Shown here piece by piece: positions 19,799 through 45,742 of a stretch of DNA of 61,407 nt (position 1 is its first letter; every line of letters begins with the position of its first letter). Source of the DNA: Pyrinomonadaceae bacterium. Its GTDB lineage: Bacteria; Acidobacteriota; Blastocatellia; Pyrinomonadales; Pyrinomonadaceae. The stretch is taken from contig DASWNR010000065.1 of the NCBI GenBank assembly GCA_036399155.1, forward strand, positions 1 through 61,407. The letters run 5' to 3'. A model generated the notes under the pieces. It did not search any database and was not told where the DNA came from. It saw only the letters and a list, made by a program, of their open reading frames with translations. A program made the position numbers and the translations under genes.

Positions 19799-23206
<3,408 letters not shown>

Positions 23207-23352: not shown

Positions 23353-23387
23353 GAAGGGCGAGCCGCGCCCAGCGCCGCCCGCCCTTC
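23353..23387 (-). terminator. possible terminator hairpin downstream of the split tRNA
   Basis: Minus strand reads GAAGGGCG-N19-CGCCCTTC followed by TTCGTC. The T-tract is weak, so this is tentative. Confidence 0.35.
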
Positions 23388-23440
23388 TGCTAGTTGTGAA
23401 TGCCCTCGCCCCGACTCGAACGGGGAACCAACGGATTATG

Positions 23441-24080
23441 CTTACCACTACGGCTTTCGCCGCCCCCGGTTGAAATGCCGCCGGGGTTTGTAGTCTGGAC
23501 TTTCCCTTCGCTTTACGCGTCTGCCATCAAGTCTCTACACCTTCCCCGCCGCGCGGGGCTTGGCTCGGGATTACCGTCCCGCTTTCGCGGCTTAGGCTTC
23601 CCCGAATTTGGCAGATTCTACAAGCGCACCTGAGACGAACCCGTCAGCGCCGGGACCCGAATGTGATACGCTCGCAACCCATCCCTGGAGGTCTTATGGA
23701 AAAGGTTTGCGTCGTCTGCGAAGCATCTCTTACCGGCAGGCAGACGGTCTTCTGCTCCCGCCGGTGTAAGAACTCCTCCACAAACAACAAACATCAGAAC
23801 TATGTTTCCCAGCAGCACCGCGGGCGACAGAGAAGGCAACGCCTGATTCACCAGAAAGGTGGCCGGTGCGAGCGGTGCGGTTACAGCCGCAACGAAGCGG
23901 CGTTGGCCTTTCATCACCTCGACCCGGCAAGCAAGTCCTTCCCTCTCGACATCAGACAATGCTCGAACGCCTCATGGAACGCGATTCTGGCCGAAGCGCT
24001 CAAGTGTCAACTCCTCTGCCTGAACTGCCACGCGGAGATTCATAATCCTGAATTTTCCACTTAGACCTGTCAAAGAACTG
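23441..24080 (-). ncRNA. group I intron (IC3-like) in the anticodon loop
   Basis: The minus strand contains CCAAATTCGGGGAAGCCTAAGCC, CCCGAGCCAAGCC and GAAGGTGTAGAGACTTGATGGCAGA. These parallel the P3/P4, P6 and P7 core of the Azoarcus tRNA-Ile intron as I remember it (CAAAUUCGGCGAAACCUAAGCG / GCCGAGCCAAGC / GAAGGUGUAGAGACUAGACGGCA). The 5' exon ends in U and the intron ends in G (23441). Candidate IGS GGUCU (24067..24063) pairs with exon GGACU and gives the U.G wobble. Confidence 0.85.
23696..24064 (+). CDS. HNH endonuclease (putative homing endonuclease), encoded antisense to the intron
   Basis: 122 aa: CVVC..FCSRRC zinc-ribbon-like N-terminus, then GGRCERCGY...LAFHHLDP...KCQLLCLNCHAEIHN, a canonical HNH/His-Me finger. 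ATG 23696 follows GGAGG at 4-nt spacing. The stop TAG 24062-24064 overlaps the candidate IGS. Confidence 0.85.
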   Translation: MEKVCVVCEASLTGRQTVFCSRRCKNSSTNNKHQNYVSQQHRGRQRRQRLIHQKGGRCERCGYSRNEAALAFHHLDPASKSFPLDIRQCSNASWNAILAEALKCQLLCLNCHAEIHNPEFST

Positions 24081-24139
24081 AGTCCGCTGCTCTAACCGAT
24101 TGAGCTACGAGGGCGTAGGTGTCAGCGGTGTGCGGGGGG

Positions 24140-24168
24140 ATTATAAGGTTCGGCCGGGGGCGTCGCAA
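24140..24168 (-). promoter_or_regulatory. sigma70-type promoter of the split tRNA(CAU) gene
   Basis: Minus strand reads TTGCGA-N17-TATAAT. The -10 element ends 25 nt before tRNA position 1. Confidence 0.6.
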
Positions 24169-24214: not shown

Positions 24215-24763
24215 TCAGCCTTCGCCCTTCATCGCCTCTTTGACCGCCTCGATCTGTGCGAGGTGGCGGGATTCGTGTGCGCCGACGAAGAGGAGCCACT
24301 GGTAGAGGTTGAGCGGGCCCCAGGCGGGGTGCGGGAAGCGGAGCGCGTGTCCGTCGGCGCGCTCAAGCGCCGGGCGCAGGCCGTGGAGCGCGGCGCGCGA
24401 GTCGCGCAGGCGTCGGAGCGAGTCGGCGAGCGGCGTCGAGTCCGCGGGGCGGAGCCTTTCGGGCGCTTCGAACCTGGCGGCGCGGCTGCGCTCGACGAAC
24501 TCCTCGATGGAGACGGGCTCGAAGGCCGCGCCCTCGGCGCGCGGCGCGCCCGACTCCTCGGCCTTGCCCAGCAGCTTGCCGAGCAGCCCGACGACGTTGC
24601 CCTCGACTATCGAAAGGTGTTCGCACAGTTGCGCCGGCGACCACCTGTCCGGCGCGGGGCGGAAGCGCTGCTCGTCGTCGCTCAGCCCCTCGACCGCGCG
24701 GAGCAGTTGCCCGCGCACCTCGTCGATGTGCTCGTAGATTTCGCTGACGCTGTTGAAGTCCAT
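24215..24763 (-). CDS. DinB-family protein
   Basis: WSPAQLCEHLSIVEG ... LLFVGAHESRHLAQIE His triad pattern of DinB_2-type proteins. ATG 24763 is preceded by GAGAGGAG. Confidence 0.75.
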   Translation of the reverse strand: MDFNSVSEIYEHIDEVRGQLLRAVEGLSDDEQRFRPAPDRWSPAQLCEHLSIVEGNVVGLLGKLLGKAEESGAPRAEGAAFEPVSIEEFVERSRAARFEAPERLRPADSTPLADSLRRLRDSRAALHGLRPALERADGHALRFPHPAWGPLNLYQWLLFVGAHESRHLAQIEAVKEAMKGEG

Positions 24764-26076
24764 AAAGGGGGGTGGCTCCTCTCGGGGCGTTTAGTCCGAA
24801 GCAGGCTGAGCACGGCCGCCTGCGGCGAGATGCGCAGGACGTGCCAGCGTGGGTAGCGTACGACCATCTCGTCGCGGTAGATGTGCGCGAAGGCCGTCTG
24901 CGCGTAGACCGTCTCGGGCGCGACCCATTCGAGACGGACGAACGGGTTCATCGAGATGAGCACGGCCTCGCTCGGCTGCGCCTGTGACCCGGCCTCGCCG
25001 CCCCGGGCCGCGGTCGCGGGCGCCGCCGACGTGCCCGCCCGCGGCTCGGGCTTCTTGAAGACGCGCGCGTCGTACTCGGCCGAGGCGGCGCGCAAGGGCT
25101 CGCGCAGGGAGAGCCCCGCGCCCGTCGGCGCGCCGCCCGACGCGTCGTAGACGGCCACGTCGTACTCGAACGCCGTCGCCAACTTCGACCCGTCGGGCGA
25201 CCACGCGGGCTTGACCGGCGTCAGCCGGTCGTCGAGCAGGCGCTCGACGCCTTCGAGCGTGACGAGGCGAGGGCGGCCCGCGTGCGGGAAGCCCTCGCTG
25301 CGCTGCGCCGCCCACTCGTCCTCCTTGCAGGCGAGCGCGGCGACCGATTGCCCGTCGGGCGACCAGGCGAGCTTGAAGTAGATGAGCCCCTCGCGCGAGG
25401 TGAGCGGGCGCAGGTCGAAGCCGTCGCGGTTGCCGACGTAGACCTGCTCGGTGCGGAAGGTCTGCGTCGATGGGATGACGGGCGCGGCGGGCGTGGGCGT
25501 CGCCTGCACGCCCCCGACCGGGTCGGGCGGTGCGAGGTCGGGCGCGGGCGGCGCTTCTTCCGCCGGCGTCGGGCTGGCCGAGAGCGAAGGGTTGCGCACG
25601 CCGCTGAAGAGGATGCGCTCGCCGTCGGGCGACCAGGCGACCTCTTCGGGGAAGACGCCCGTCAAATCCGCCGGCATGACGTTGCGTATGAAGATTCCCT
25701 CGGCCGAGTAGAGGTCGATGCGGAAGTCGGTGTCGGTCGCGCTCGTGCCGTAGAGCGCGAGCACGCGCTGGCCGCGCGGGTCTACGACCGTGCGGATGAG
25801 CGCCTCGTCGGGGCGCTGCGTCTCGAATGCGCTCTTGACGGTGGGCCAGGGCTCGTCGGGCTCGTCGCGCCGGAGCGGCTCGGGCAGAGACTCTTCGGGC
25901 GCGTCCGGCTCGAAGCGGAAGGCGAGGCGCTCGGCGGGCACGTCGCGCAGGGACTTCGGCACGACCGAGAGGCCGGCCGTCTCGCGCACCTTCTGGCAGC
26001 CCGCGCCCGCCGTGCAGAGCGCGACCGCCAGCACCGGCAGCAGCGTCGCCCACAGACTCTTTCCCATCCCGGCCAA
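24682..26076 (-). CDS. PD40/TolB-like beta-propeller repeat exported protein (possible lipoprotein)
   Basis: N-terminus MGKSLWATLLPVLAVALCTAGAGC. Repeated W(S/A)PDG motifs (VAWSPDGERILFSG, LAWSPDGQSVAAL, PAWSPDGSKLATA). The last ~27 codons overlap the DinB gene and look non-native, so the true 3' end is uncertain. Confidence 0.7.
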   Translation of the reverse strand: MAGMGKSLWATLLPVLAVALCTAGAGCQKVRETAGLSVVPKSLRDVPAERLAFRFEPDAPEESLPEPLRRDEPDEPWPTVKSAFETQRPDEALIRTVVDPRGQRVLALYGTSATDTDFRIDLYSAEGIFIRNVMPADLTGVFPEEVAWSPDGERILFSGVRNPSLSASPTPAEEAPPAPDLAPPDPVGGVQATPTPAAPVIPSTQTFRTEQVYVGNRDGFDLRPLTSREGLIYFKLAWSPDGQSVAALACKEDEWAAQRSEGFPHAGRPRLVTLEGVERLLDDRLTPVKPAWSPDGSKLATAFEYDVAVYDASGGAPTGAGLSLREPLRAASAEYDARVFKKPEPRAGTSAAPATAARGGEAGSQAQPSEAVLISMNPFVRLEWVAPETVYAQTAFAHIYRDEMVVRYPRWHVLRISPQAAVLSLLRTKRPERSHPPLWTSTASAKSTSTSTRCAGNCSARSRG

Positions 26077-45730: not shown

Positions 45731-45742
45731 CGCCTCGTTTTT

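Follow-up and report, generated by a model that had tools for sequence, protein, structure and literature searches.

A predicted IC3 group I intron with an antisense HNH endonuclease gene in a tRNA(CAU) gene of a Pyrinomonadaceae-like acidobacterium

When the window (the whole stretch of 61,407 nucleotides that was analysed) was searched with ARAGORN in intron mode, a tRNA gene was called as tRNA(cat) i(35,640), while the default mode missed the split tRNA. As the original prediction had stated, the two exon halves, with 640 nt between them, join into a perfect 74-nt cloverleaf with the anticodon loop CTCATAA. The host is a Pyrinomonadaceae-like acidobacterium. The features of the locus are listed below; intron positions are converted by the rule that the window coordinate equals 24081 minus the intron position.

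24140..24168, minus strand: promoter-like site for the pre-tRNA (TTGCGA, 17 nt, TATAAT), from a consensus scan
24114-24081, minus strand: tRNA exon 1 (34 nt, 3' end ...GGACU), from ARAGORN -i and the cloverleaf of the joined exons
24079..24084, minus strand: 5' strand of P1 (exon G-4 A-3 C-2 U-1 plus intron C1 A2)
24080-23441, minus strand: group I intron of IC3 type (640 nt), between U33 and C34
24053..24076, minus strand: 5' strand of the P1 extension, with P1a (intron 5-10), P1b (13-18), the receptor-like UCUAAG and P1c (21-28)
23696-24064, plus strand: HNH endonuclease gene (122 aa + TAG), antisense to the intron and covering intron 17-385
23687..23691, plus strand: Shine-Dalgarno-like GGAGG, 4 nt upstream of the HNH ATG, read from the sequence
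23682..23703, minus strand: 3' strand of the P1 extension (intron 378-399), with P1c, UAAGA, P1b and P1a
23676..23681, minus strand: internal guide sequence U400 G401 G402 G403 U404 U405 (UGGGUU)
23623..23672, minus strand: P2 (intron 409-416 with 451-458), with a variable inner hairpin P2a
23444..23615, minus strand: catalytic core, from the Rfam P3-P6-P3' match, covariation and the published consensus layout
23441, minus strand: terminal intron G (omega G), with the 3' splice site directly after it
23440-23401, minus strand: tRNA exon 2 (40 nt), which begins CATAATCC
23356..23370, minus strand: terminator-like hairpin and then a T-rich tail, downstream of the tRNA, from a consensus scan

Exon 1 contains the 5' strand of the acceptor stem, the D arm, the 5' strand of the anticodon stem, C32 and U33. 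The anticodon CAU, A37, A38, the 3' strand of the anticodon stem, the variable loop, the T arm, the 3' strand of the acceptor stem and A73 belong to exon 2, in which CCA is not encoded. The intron starts with CAGTT and ends with GTAAG, and the predicted boundary rules (last exon nucleotide U, last intron nucleotide G) hold. The junction is ACU|...G|CAUAA, an insertion at 33/34, and its 3' part, G|CATAA (RNA: G|CAUAA), is kept in 79 of 79 loci of the class (75 distinct introns plus the window). The site is the one classically occupied in tRNA-fMet, and Williams 2020 (bioRxiv 10.1101/2020.01.27.920355) names it "2Ug"; the intron has the features of position-2 tRNA introns (fMet.2Ug, Met.2Ug and Ile2.2Ug), in that the second nucleotide of the anticodon loop (U-1) precedes it and its last nucleotide is G. 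Assignment to the Azoarcus-type class (Ile2.5Ug; insertion at 36/37 and P1 formed from CAU) was rejected due to the junction at 33/34. Betaproteobacterial loci recovered in the same core-pattern scan have the junction ACUCAU|...|AAUCC.

A single promoter-like site was found upstream of the tRNA, against 0.2 expected, and its predicted -10 element ends about 25 nt before the tRNA 5' end. CTTATAAT also stands upstream of the tRNA in two relatives (L001 and L004). This site probably acts as the promoter of the pre-tRNA, and the hairpin with its T-rich tail downstream may act as the terminator.

The interrupted gene most likely encodes tRNA-Ile2(CAU), judging from comparison of the joined exons. 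The top ten matches of the joined tRNA in E. coli were all annotated as tRNA-Ile, and the single one of these that was fetched and read has the anticodon CAU. The G1-C72 pair excludes an initiator tRNA, and CAU sits on an elongator-type body that resembles tRNA-Ile(CAU) rather than tRNA-Met or tRNA-fMet. At the 8-kb locus of one relative (L120), separate initiator and elongator Met tRNA genes adjoin the split gene, which is the only Ile2-like one of the three CAU tRNAs there. The anticodon arm is also identical to that of the Azoarcus-type tRNA. The isotype model of the preprint (10.1101/2020.01.27.920355) labels the host of the most similar seed of the class Met, not Ile2, and ARAGORN labels many such host genes Leu, Ser, Pro or Arg. 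Standard tRNA finders miss or mislabel the host gene, so that affected genomes of Acidobacteriota, Chloroflexota and Patescibacteria may seem to have no AUA-reading tRNA. Splicing would be essential if the genome had no other tRNA gene of this type.

A search with Rfam Intron_gpI (RF00028), which had been proposed as a check, gave a significant match (45.4 bits, E = 3.7e-10) at 23617..23519 on the minus strand. It was obtained only in E-value mode on a sub-region, covers model positions 48-158 only (P3-P6-P3') and remains under the gathering score of 50 bits; at that threshold, no match was returned for the window locus. An Azoarcus-type intron itself scores only 40.6 bits, and the gathering threshold consequently misses accepted members of the subgroup. 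Four relatives score above it (L078, 72.2; L008, 58.6; L002, 56.7; L034, 53.2 bits). The predicted identity of the locus, a tRNA(CAU) gene split by an Azoarcus-related IC3 group I intron that is lengthened by an ORF, is upheld by the Rfam match, by these higher-scoring relatives and by covariation from P1 to P9.

Helices of the core were placed by homology to the published consensus structure. By intron position they are P3 (466-471/556-561), P4 (476-481/511-516), P5 and P5a with a GAAA loop, P6 and P6a, P7 (G546, G548-U552 with A579-C584, A547 being bulged), P8 (562-564/570-572), P9 (587-591/633-637), P9a, and P9b with a GAAA loop. Minimum-energy folding (RNAfold) reproduces the helices. Covariation is seen in P3, P5a, P6a, P8, P9a and P9b, while P4 and P7 are nearly invariant. 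In the alignment 89 % of the cells are paired, compared with at most 47 % when the partners are slid, and 51 pairs are changed on both sides; the observed values were reached in none of 500 shuffles. P2 covaries too (7 of its 8 pairs changed on both sides; 93.6 % of cells paired), with 81 G·U against 7 A·C.

The three Azoarcus-like blocks named in the original prediction are present and agree with the Azoarcus olearius row of the published seed alignment. The P3 pairing UCUGCC/GGCAGA is real and covaries across the relatives. In contrast, the proposed P7-like GTAG/CTAC was a misassignment. CUAC pairs with GUGGU and forms the 5' strand of P9, and P7 is G(A)GACUU/AAGUCC, at the place of GACUA/UAGUC in the published tRNA-intron consensus. 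The intron has the structural hallmarks of group I, namely a P3-P9 core with the P3/P7 pseudoknot, a G-binding pair beside the bulged A in P7, a U before the 5' splice site in a U·G wobble of P1, and a terminal G. The core sequences AAAUUCGGGGAA, CCGAGCCAAG and GGUGUAGAGACU, the lack of P5abc and the location in a tRNA anticodon loop are those of the IC3 subgroup.

P1 is formed by GACU|CA and UGGGUU, with the 5' splice site directly after U-1 (24081) and the guide about 400 nt into the intron, and RNAfold recovers this pairing. U-1·G402 is kept in 39 of 39 close relatives and in 69 of 69 family members, and GGGTTGC is invariant in the 39 sequences. Exon and guide change together, GGACU occurring with GGGUU and GGCU with GGGCU; the pair at position -3 is A-U in 39 members, G-C in 29 and G·U in 1. 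A candidate P10 of only 2-3 bp can be drawn, in which G401 and U400 pair with C+1 and A+2 of exon 2 and A399 may also pair with U+3. Between its two strands, P1 is continued by the extension stem, which folds at -26.4 kcal/mol. The helix block of P1b, P1c and two P1a pairs has 13 of 16 pairs changed on both sides, and P1a-c show 76 G·U against 33 A·C; this excess indicates that the fold belongs to the intron-sense RNA. The end loop of the extension, about 350 nt, is the complement of the HNH coding sequence, and the start and stop regions of the HNH gene form the two strands of P1c.

The anatomy originally proposed was a different one, with P1 made of exon GGACU and intron GGUCU (14-18) and P7 at GTAG/CTAC; it would make the ORF a passive insert downstream of P1, in P2. 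GGACU and GGUCU of the window can indeed form five pairs with a U·G at the splice site, and this wobble is also found in 23 of 39 close relatives, but 14 of the 39 would have U-A there, and breaks occur in two further pairs (9 sequences for one, 15 for the other). Moreover, GGUCU covaries almost perfectly with AGACC at intron 387-392, within the extended P1 stem (one pair is G-C in 15 sequences, A-U in 13 and G·U in 7), whereas the guide GGGUU gives U·G throughout and compensates the exon change from A to G. With P7 and P9 placed as above, this anatomy has hardly any chance of being correct. Our own first structure, which used the same "IGS" with "P2" at 21-28/378-385 and a "P2.1", was dropped because of the covariation with 387-392 and the invariant GGGUUGC. 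An unbiased guide search in the window gave a chance match in P2a (ACGGGUUCG, position 440), which is not conserved and was discarded. A guide 400 nt downstream of the splice site calls for caution when group I boundaries are annotated manually.

The same data bear on whether the intron is alive. The split gene might be a tRNA pseudogene with a dead intron and a selfish nuclease gene, tRNA-Ile2 being supplied by another intact gene; the sub-threshold Rfam score would fit this, and the very large P1 loop might impede folding. However, the tRNA exons are flawless, and 39 relatives show no variation in P4, in P7 including its bulged A, in the last G of the intron or in the U·G pair at the splice site. 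The locus is also syntenic across a bacterial family with compensatory changes throughout, which requires selection on the RNA fold, and the L120 locus has no second Ile2-like gene among its CAU tRNAs. We consider a dead intron very unlikely.

The intron was correctly predicted to be lengthened by an ORF, but its strand had gone unnoticed: the ORF is an HNH endonuclease gene antisense to the intron. It matches the phrog_2255 profile (PHROG 2255, E = 4e-21), and 98 homologues were found, mostly of 122 aa. The protein has the conserved motifs CxxC, FHH, N and NCHxExHN, in which F72, H73, C108, C111 and H116 are invariant and C58, C61, H74, N91, N110 and H112 nearly so. Together with the profile match, the residues of the beta-beta-alpha metal motif and the zinc-binding CxxC pairs identify an HNH protein. 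The Pfam HNH profile (PF01844) scores 16.3 bits, under its cutoff of 21.4. The AlphaFold model has a pLDDT of 92, and by fold it is matched best by HNH nucleases, with weak E-values (at least 0.09 to solved structures). A PDB sequence search found no solved structure close in sequence, and its hits (e.g. CTCF and NUP93) were regarded as chance matches.

Long spurious ORFs are common at 69 % G+C, and several overlap this region on both strands, so the frame could have been open by chance and non-coding. This is contradicted by the profile match and the homologues of mostly the same length, by a dN/dS of 0.07-0.20, which points to purifying selection, by the confident HNH-like model and by the presence of the same ORF in AT-rich Patescibacteria. 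The probability of a chance frame appears negligible, and comparative data already refute it, short of proteomic confirmation. Judged from sequence and model, the ORF is a real, intact HNH nuclease gene.

GGAGG upstream of its ATG may be the ribosome-binding site, as GGAGG or GGAAG is found at the equivalent place in several acidobacterial relatives. A consensus scan found no sigma-70-like site for the HNH gene on the plus strand of the window. TGTGATACGCT was examined as an extended -10 and set aside as a weak candidate, since it also serves as a P2 strand and is found in introns that lack the ORF. Of 14 non-acidobacterial copies, 13 have a -10 box upstream of the HNH ATG, at a distance of exactly 6 nt.

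At least 75 related introns were found in Acidobacteriota, Chloroflexota and Patescibacteria, with a few in other phyla, and the core-pattern scan recovered at least 119 genome loci, nearly all within split tRNA genes. The original prediction placed such introns in a few lineages only, a view outdated by these numbers and by the 21 tRNA/site classes that Williams 2020 (10.1101/2020.01.27.920355) reports across many phyla. The antisense HNH gene is present in every one of the 27 long loci (600-661 nt; the window and 26 others), and three of them (L019, L028 and L041) have a degenerate copy. Short introns retain the ORF start, the stop or internal pieces, and those without the ORF retain the full ribozyme core. 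Long and short forms share one neighbourhood (pd40-DinB-tRNA-tricorn), where related genomes have introns in the same chromosomal position, some with the HNH ORF and some lacking it. Long, decayed and short introns at one locus form a natural series for the gain-and-loss cycle of a homing gene.

Position inside an intron and presence or absence among homologous introns characterize homing endonuclease genes, and the HNH gene shows both. Intron-less tRNA genes with the identical anticodon arm are widespread, and the intron-less form of the gene, the putative HNH target, contains GAGCAGCGGACTCATAATCCGTTGGT. No intron-less allele of a close relative was found among the matches listed (120 metagenome loci); the only syntenic intron-less case among them is distant (L221). 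Phages as carriers were rejected: the 22 classifiable viral-contig matches are short Azoarcus-type introns without an HNH gene.

Alternatively, the HNH protein may no longer be a homing nuclease and may be kept for another role (as a maturase, in repair nicking or in defence). An enzyme that serves homing alone would be expected to decay after fixation of the intron, yet the gene is under purifying selection while the intron looks fixed and vertically inherited, and the N-terminal zinc ribbon could bind either kind of nucleic acid. Against this, the catalytic HNH residues are all conserved, and many losses or disruptions of the ORF have occurred within the family. This course is usual for homing genes and shows that the protein is dispensable for splicing, in line with the full ribozyme core of the short ORF-less introns. 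A role other than homing is therefore unlikely, but it has a better chance than a dead intron.

The explanation that we favour, and regard as highly probable on sequence evidence, is a working tRNA-Ile2(CAU) gene with a self-splicing IC3 intron at U33/C34 and an antisense homing-type HNH gene aboard. The pre-tRNA would be transcribed from the TATAAT promoter (24168-24140). Free guanosine would attack after U33, the terminal G640 would then replace it and the exons would be ligated, leaving C34 free for lysidine formation. The HNH mRNA would be made separately from the plus strand; in Chloroflexota and Patescibacteria, it would be leaderless and start from the -10 box 6 nt before the ATG. The enzyme would cut or nick intron-less tRNA(CAU) genes near the anticodon loop, and repair would copy the intron in. 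After fixation, the ORF would decay and be deleted, giving short introns with ORF remnants.

As points against this explanation, we counted the closing of P1 over a loop of about 350 nt, the P10 of 2-3 bp, the sub-threshold Rfam score, the weak Pfam and fold scores, the HNH promoter and the close intron-less allele that were not found, and the Met label of the seed.

The Azoarcus pre-tRNA-Ile(CAU) intron (Ile2.5Ug, IC3 structural model) has the same host tRNA type with an identical anticodon arm (GAGCAGCGGACUCAUAAUCCGUUGGU). It also shares an IC3 core with near-identical J3/4-P4, P6 and J6/7-P7 blocks, a CCUAAG receptor in P5 and a GAAA tetraloop in the P9 domain. It differs in its site (36/37), in its P1 (CAU with GUG, here exon ACU with the guide GGGUU) and in its length (about 205 nt against 640 nt); the intron described here has a long ORF-bearing P1 extension, a P8 of only 3 bp, a P2 without a GAAA loop and a P9 that is a three-way junction. 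The Synechocystis PCC 6803 tRNA-fMet intron (fMet.2Ug) occupies the same site, after U33 and before CAU, has a similar length (655 nt) and carries a homing endonuclease gene. That enzyme (I-Ssp6803I), however, is a PD-(D/E)XK protein of 150 aa encoded on the tRNA strand and co-transcribed with the tRNA from one start site, whereas in the present intron the nuclease is an HNH enzyme encoded opposite to the tRNA, which is an elongator-type tRNA(CAU). Met.2Ug and Ile2.2Ug introns (Williams 2020, 10.1101/2020.01.27.920355) have the same site, U-1 and terminal G. The seed Sba135.Met.2Ug has the guide UGGGCU, the core blocks and the P9 layout of the window's intron family, whereas the core of the Ile2.2Ug seed Gba28 differs from it.

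Outside bacterial tRNA genes, nuclear rDNA group I introns with antisense His-Cys box genes (e.g. L2066; PMC9548176) also have the nuclease opposite the ribozyme strand, so that in both cases it needs its own transcription. Those introns are eukaryotic, lie in rRNA genes and often contain spliceosomal introns, in contrast to a bacterial tRNA gene with an HNH enzyme, which in some relatives has a bacterial-type promoter that would give a leaderless mRNA. Phage HNH proteins of PHROG 2255 belong to the same protein family; phage copies that carry an HNH endonuclease annotation are 33-45 % identical to the protein of the window. The best phage homologue, on the jumbo phage LR756504.1 and the only one examined, is free-standing and lies outside tRNA introns.

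A compilation from 2007 of nucleases encoded in bacterial and phage introns lists Synechocystis tRNA-fMet as the only case in a tRNA gene, and the intron family described here would be a second kind of nuclease-carrying intron in bacterial tRNA genes. Williams 2020 (10.1101/2020.01.27.920355) is a catalogue that already includes tRNA introns at the 33/34 site and describes no ORF, strand, P1 extension or promoter; the new part appears to be the antisense HNH gene. The same-strand, intron-co-transcribed layout of the bacterial and phage examples checked is reversed here, with the ORF on the plus strand and the intron and tRNA on the minus strand. No description of an antisense HNH gene in a bacterial tRNA intron was found in the literature searched, which mostly excluded subscription journals, and within it this is the sole bacterial case with the nuclease gene on the opposite strand. 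The HNH enzyme, if homing, would recognise the gene sequence of a tRNA anticodon loop and may be of interest for enzyme engineering.

With some hesitation, the antisense layout can be read as a built-in control circuit in a compact mobile unit that has moved between at least three phyla; we hold this to be possible but doubtful. Pre-tRNA and excised intron both contain the large P1 loop, to which the nuclease mRNA is complementary throughout. If the circuit exists, the abundant tRNA transcript could silence the nuclease through RNA pairing and head-on transcription, and ribosomes would be kept off the ribozyme strand, leaving the intron free to fold. In Chloroflexota and Patescibacteria, the putative nuclease promoter, the leaderless start and sometimes the last codons lie in the P1 stem and exon 1, and a single DNA stretch would then be tRNA, ribozyme helix, promoter and coding sequence at once.

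The stretch between the two tRNA exons is, by its sequence, a group I intron. When ARAGORN was run with introns allowed, the exon halves, placed 640 nt apart by the original prediction, were indeed joined, giving a flawless cloverleaf of 74 nt whose anticodon loop is CUCAUAA (call: tRNA(cat) i(35,640)). Default ARAGORN missed the split tRNA, and Rfam at its gathering threshold missed both tRNA and intron; the sole result in each case was a tRNA-Glu at 45742. The features of the locus are as follows.

24114..24081, minus strand: tRNA exon 1, 34 nt, 3' end GGACT
24080..23441, minus strand: intron, 640 nt, CAGTT at start, GTAAG at end
23440..23401, minus strand: tRNA exon 2, 40 nt, start CATAATCC, end GAGGGCA, CCA not encoded
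23681-23676, minus strand: guide sequence, 400 nt into the intron, from pairing counts
23696-24064, plus strand: HNH ORF, ATG to TAG, 122 aa, intron positions 17-385, the sole conserved ORF
24168-24140, minus strand: putative promoter-like TTGCGA-17-TATAAT for the tRNA
23370-23356, minus strand: putative terminator-like hairpin for the tRNA
19799-23206, minus strand: neighbouring tricorn-protease-like protein, 1135 aa
24215-24763, minus strand: neighbouring DinB_2-family protein
24682-26076, minus strand: neighbouring PD40-repeat-like protein

The junction is ambiguous by 0-2 nt due to the 'CA' common to the starts of intron and exon 2. The predicted boundary rule, U before the intron and G at its end, is satisfied at junction position 0 alone. 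Comparison of 79 homologous loci, comprising 75 distinct introns and the window, showed an unchanging G|CATAA and variable first intron bases (CAG, CAA, CGG, TAA, TGA).

Rfam Intron_gpI matched 23617..23519 on the minus strand, spanning P3, P4, P5, P6 and the return strand of P3. The match expected earlier was thus obtained (E = 3.7e-10), but its 45.4 bits lie under the curated threshold of 50. Four homologous introns exceeded this value (L078, 72.2; L008, 58.6; L002, 56.7; L034, 53.2 bits) and a betaproteobacterial Azoarcus-type intron reached only 40.6 bits. For this subgroup, then, the threshold is not a reliable criterion. The core blocks recognised earlier were found and agree with the Azoarcus olearius entry in the seed alignment of Williams 2020, a preprint catalogue of tRNA group I introns (bioRxiv 10.1101/2020.01.27.920355).

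Pair counts for the 5' splice site were taken from alignment A1 (39 acidobacterial-type introns), and wider P1 counts from 69 introns of the class, i.e. those between U33 and C34 of tRNA(CAU). The P1 first proposed, exon GGACU with intron G14-U18 (GGUCU), did not hold: the splice-site pair was U·G in 23 of the 39 introns, U-A in 14 and unpaired in two, and two further pairs were broken in 9 and 15 sequences. G14-U18 covaries instead with positions 387-392, where one pair is G-C in 15, A-U in 13 and G·U in 7 introns, the adjoining one G-C in 21 and A-U in 11, and the next U-A in 30 and C-G in 6.

Directly after the P1b/P1a stem, the heptamer GGGUUGC is invariant in A1. With GACU|CA it forms G-4·U405, A-3-U404, C-2-G403 and U-1·G402 in 39/39 introns, and C1-G401 in 37 (U·G in the other 2), and it is therefore the guide sequence, 400 nt into the intron. 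U-1·G and C-2-G are present in 69/69 introns of the class. At position -3, 39 introns have A-U (exon GGACU with guide GGGUU), 29 have G-C (exon GGCU with guide GGGCU) and one has G·U; the subfamilies thus differ by a compensatory change. G401, U400 and A399 can also form a short P10 with exon 2 (C+1, A+2 and U+3, respectively), and such pairing of the guide accounts for the repeated CA. A second GGGUUCGU segment at 23642-23635 (intron 439-446, within P2a), with 7 possible pairs to the 5' splice-site region, one of them U·G, was rejected as chance; it is common only to the close relative L044.

The interval between splice site and guide is a long irregular stem, the P1 extension. It carries a conserved UCUAAG/UAAGA motif resembling a tetraloop receptor, and the same pairs were given by its minimum-energy fold with the loop replaced by GAAA (-26.4 kcal/mol). 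Core helices were placed by the published consensus (Williams 2020). All lie on the minus strand, in intron positions.

P1a: 5-10 with 394-399
P1b: 13-18 with 387-392
P1c: 21-28 with 378-385
P2: 409-416 with 451-458
P3: 466-471 with 556-561
P4: 476-481 with 511-516
P5 and P5a: GAAA loop on P5a
P6 and P6a
P7: G546 and G548-U552 with A579-C584, A547 bulged
P8: 562-564 with 570-572
P9: 587-591 with 633-637, P9a and P9b inside, GAAA loop on P9b
Terminal G: G640

In the P7-like GTAG/CTAC proposed earlier, CTAC is in fact the 5' strand of P9. The minimum-energy fold of a shortened pre-tRNA recovered P2, P3, P4, P5a, P6a, P8, P9, P9a and P9b. In A1, pairing was seen in 89.2% of cells overall, versus 32-47% when partners were slid; 51 pairs showed changes on both sides, and the observed values were reached by 0/500 shuffles. 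G·U was more frequent than A·C both in the P1 extension (76 versus 33) and in P2 (81 versus 7), so the fold is that of the intron-sense RNA, not of the opposite-strand mRNA. We infer that both GAAA loops would dock, that of P9b on the P5 CCUAAG motif, as in Azoarcus, and that of P5a on the receptor-like motif in the P1 extension. In an ORF-less intron (L038:1917-2244), the P9a loop contains short tandem repeats of GATTTTT and then AAATCCC units (A1 columns ~644-700).

An ORF within the intron had been proposed correctly; that it is antisense, on the plus strand, and encodes an HNH nuclease had not been noticed. Its stop codon lies within P1b and its first and last codons are the two strands of P1c. 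The protein matched PHROG 2255 'HNH endonuclease' (E = 4e-21) and scored 16.3 bits with Pfam HNH (cutoff 21.4). Common to the aligned copies are an N-terminal CxxC…FCSxxCK zinc ribbon and, after it, GGxCxxCGY, FHH, N and KCxLxCxNCHxExHN. The AlphaFold model has a mean pLDDT of 92, and its best fold matches, with weak E-values, are the HNH nucleases Cap5, Gme HNH nickase, Cas9 HNH and T4 endonuclease VII; sequence search found no similar solved structure. There are 98 homologues (38-86% identity, mostly 122 aa), and in the loci obtained from three look-ups the ORF again faces a split tRNA of this kind on the other strand. Phage homologues (33-45% identity) are annotated as HNH endonuclease. The antisense ORF is present in every long locus of the class (27 loci of 600-661 nt, the window and 26 others, three phyla), in broken form in L019, L028 and L041, and pairwise dN/dS is 0.07-0.20. 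These data support the ORF as a genuine gene of an HNH nuclease. The best phage homologue (L246, jumbo phage LR756504.1, 334469-337813; 45% identity) is free-standing; an uninterrupted tRNA(CAU) gene of the same strand precedes it by ~215 nt, and the record has four matching places.

In 14 Chloroflexota and Patescibacteria copies a hexamer lies exactly 6 nt before the HNH ATG; in 13, all except the frameshifted L019, it agrees with TATAAT at 5-6 positions. Often a TTGACA-like element precedes the hexamer by 16-18 nt. From this spacing, a leaderless mRNA starting at the ATG is predicted for these copies, and its promoter would lie within the 3' strand of the P1 extension. Five of the 14 terminate at the splice junction, whose complement (T|CA or T|TA) serves as stop codon, and in five others the ORF extends 14-21 nt into exon 1, whose opposite strand therefore also encodes the nuclease C-terminus. 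Loci with the frame ending in exon 1 or at the junction are L050, L074, L085, L091 and L109, and L015, L025, L046, L070 and L114. The acidobacterial copies, including the window, lack a TATAAT-like promoter before the ATG; several, again including the window (23687-23691), have GGAGG or GGAAG 4 nt before it.

The order pd40-like, DinB_2, split tRNA, tricorn-like protease is conserved in Pyrinomonadaceae and places the window in this family. Its nearest relative is L024, a Pyrinomonadaceae metagenome assembly (tricorn 90%, pd40 81%, DinB 79% identical). Within this neighbourhood, the intron is long in some genomes but short in others. Since short introns retain ORF remnants, either start and stop regions (L008) or internal fragments (L121, L071, L103, L094), they are deletion derivatives. 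The long, decayed and short series corresponds to the cycle expected of a homing gene, with invasion, fixation, decay and loss. Intron-less tRNA genes with an identical 26-nt anticodon arm are common in metagenomes, and among the 120 matches listed one distant case (L221) was syntenic.

We call the split tRNA tRNA-Ile2 on sequence grounds, because the joined tRNA has G1-C72, ruling out an initiator; every one of its ten best E. coli matches is annotated tRNA-Ile (with CAU in the one read); its anticodon arm is identical to that of Azoarcus-type hosts; and in the Saccharibacteria locus L120 initiator and elongator Met tRNAs lie <2 kb from the split gene. The isotype model of Williams 2020 labelled the host of a similar intron 'Met'.

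When one-per-species genomes were scanned for two core blocks, at least 119 loci were found, nearly all within split tRNA genes. With the 17 new classes of Williams 2020, this contradicts the earlier claim of few lineages. The insertion site was not that of Azoarcus either: the Azoarcus type (Betaproteobacteria) is ~200 nt and inserted after CAU, whereas the window intron is 640 nt, between U33 and C34. The U33/C34 tRNA(CAU) type comprised 75 distinct sequences from Pyrinomonadaceae and other Acidobacteriota, Chloroflexota and Patescibacteria, and a few genomes labelled Bacillota, Capsulimonadaceae or Janthinobacterium. Two initiator-type tRNAs are split at this site, L065 (Spirosomataceae) and L077 (Heliobacteriaceae). 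Both have C1 and a GGG/CCC anticodon stem, with short introns carrying the class core and a GGGCUG guide, which suggests intron movement between tRNA-fMet and tRNA-Ile2 genes, both of which have the CUCAUAA loop. The core pattern also occurs in split tRNA-Thr(GGU), tRNA-Arg(CCU), tRNA-Arg(UCU) and tRNA-Leu(UAA) (L006, L098, L023, L119, L057, L111) of Alphaproteobacteria, Thiotrichales, Aggregatilineales, Acidobacteriaceae and Saprospiraceae. In the compared loci L001-L124, intron-mode ARAGORN mislabelled many tRNA(CAU) as Leu(caa/taa/cag), Ser, Pro, Arg, Val or Phe, because it reads the three bases at the intron start as an anticodon, which they resemble. In such genomes the tRNA for AUA would be missed or wrongly assigned by automated annotation.

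Besides the new classes, Williams 2020 has four classical bacterial ones (Leu.3Ug, Arg.5Ug, fMet.2Ug, Ile2.5Ug), and its seeds Met.2Ug and Ile2.2Ug show that site and host class were already catalogued. The intron is a new member of that class. The original prediction was right on a real feature and its outline class, and wrong or incomplete on P1, P7, the Azoarcus site, rarity and the nature of the ORF. On genes, Williams 2020 states only that introns >~400 bp may contain them. Among the intron-encoded nucleases of bacteria and phages compiled in 2007, the one tRNA case is I-Ssp6803I, a PD-(D/E)XK enzyme whose gene shares the strand and the transcription start of the tRNA, unlike the opposite-strand HNH gene here. 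Antisense homing genes in the literature found were in nuclear rDNA introns only (PMC9548176). An antisense HNH gene in a bacterial tRNA intron was not encountered in this incompletely covered literature, which supports novelty without proving it. A presumably separately promoted antisense HNH gene within a structured P1 extension is a new form of the mobile-intron theme.

According to a 2014 review, phage introns to date were all in protein-coding genes. The IC3 core was observed in 22 IMG/VR viral contigs (L247-L268), some of 140-320 kb, where host flanks or mis-binning are possible. The classifiable introns among them lack the HNH gene. ARAGORN called a split tRNA in 19 of the 22, with short introns (190-222 nt) located mostly in tRNA(CAU) after the anticodon, as in Azoarcus, and in a few cases in other tRNAs.
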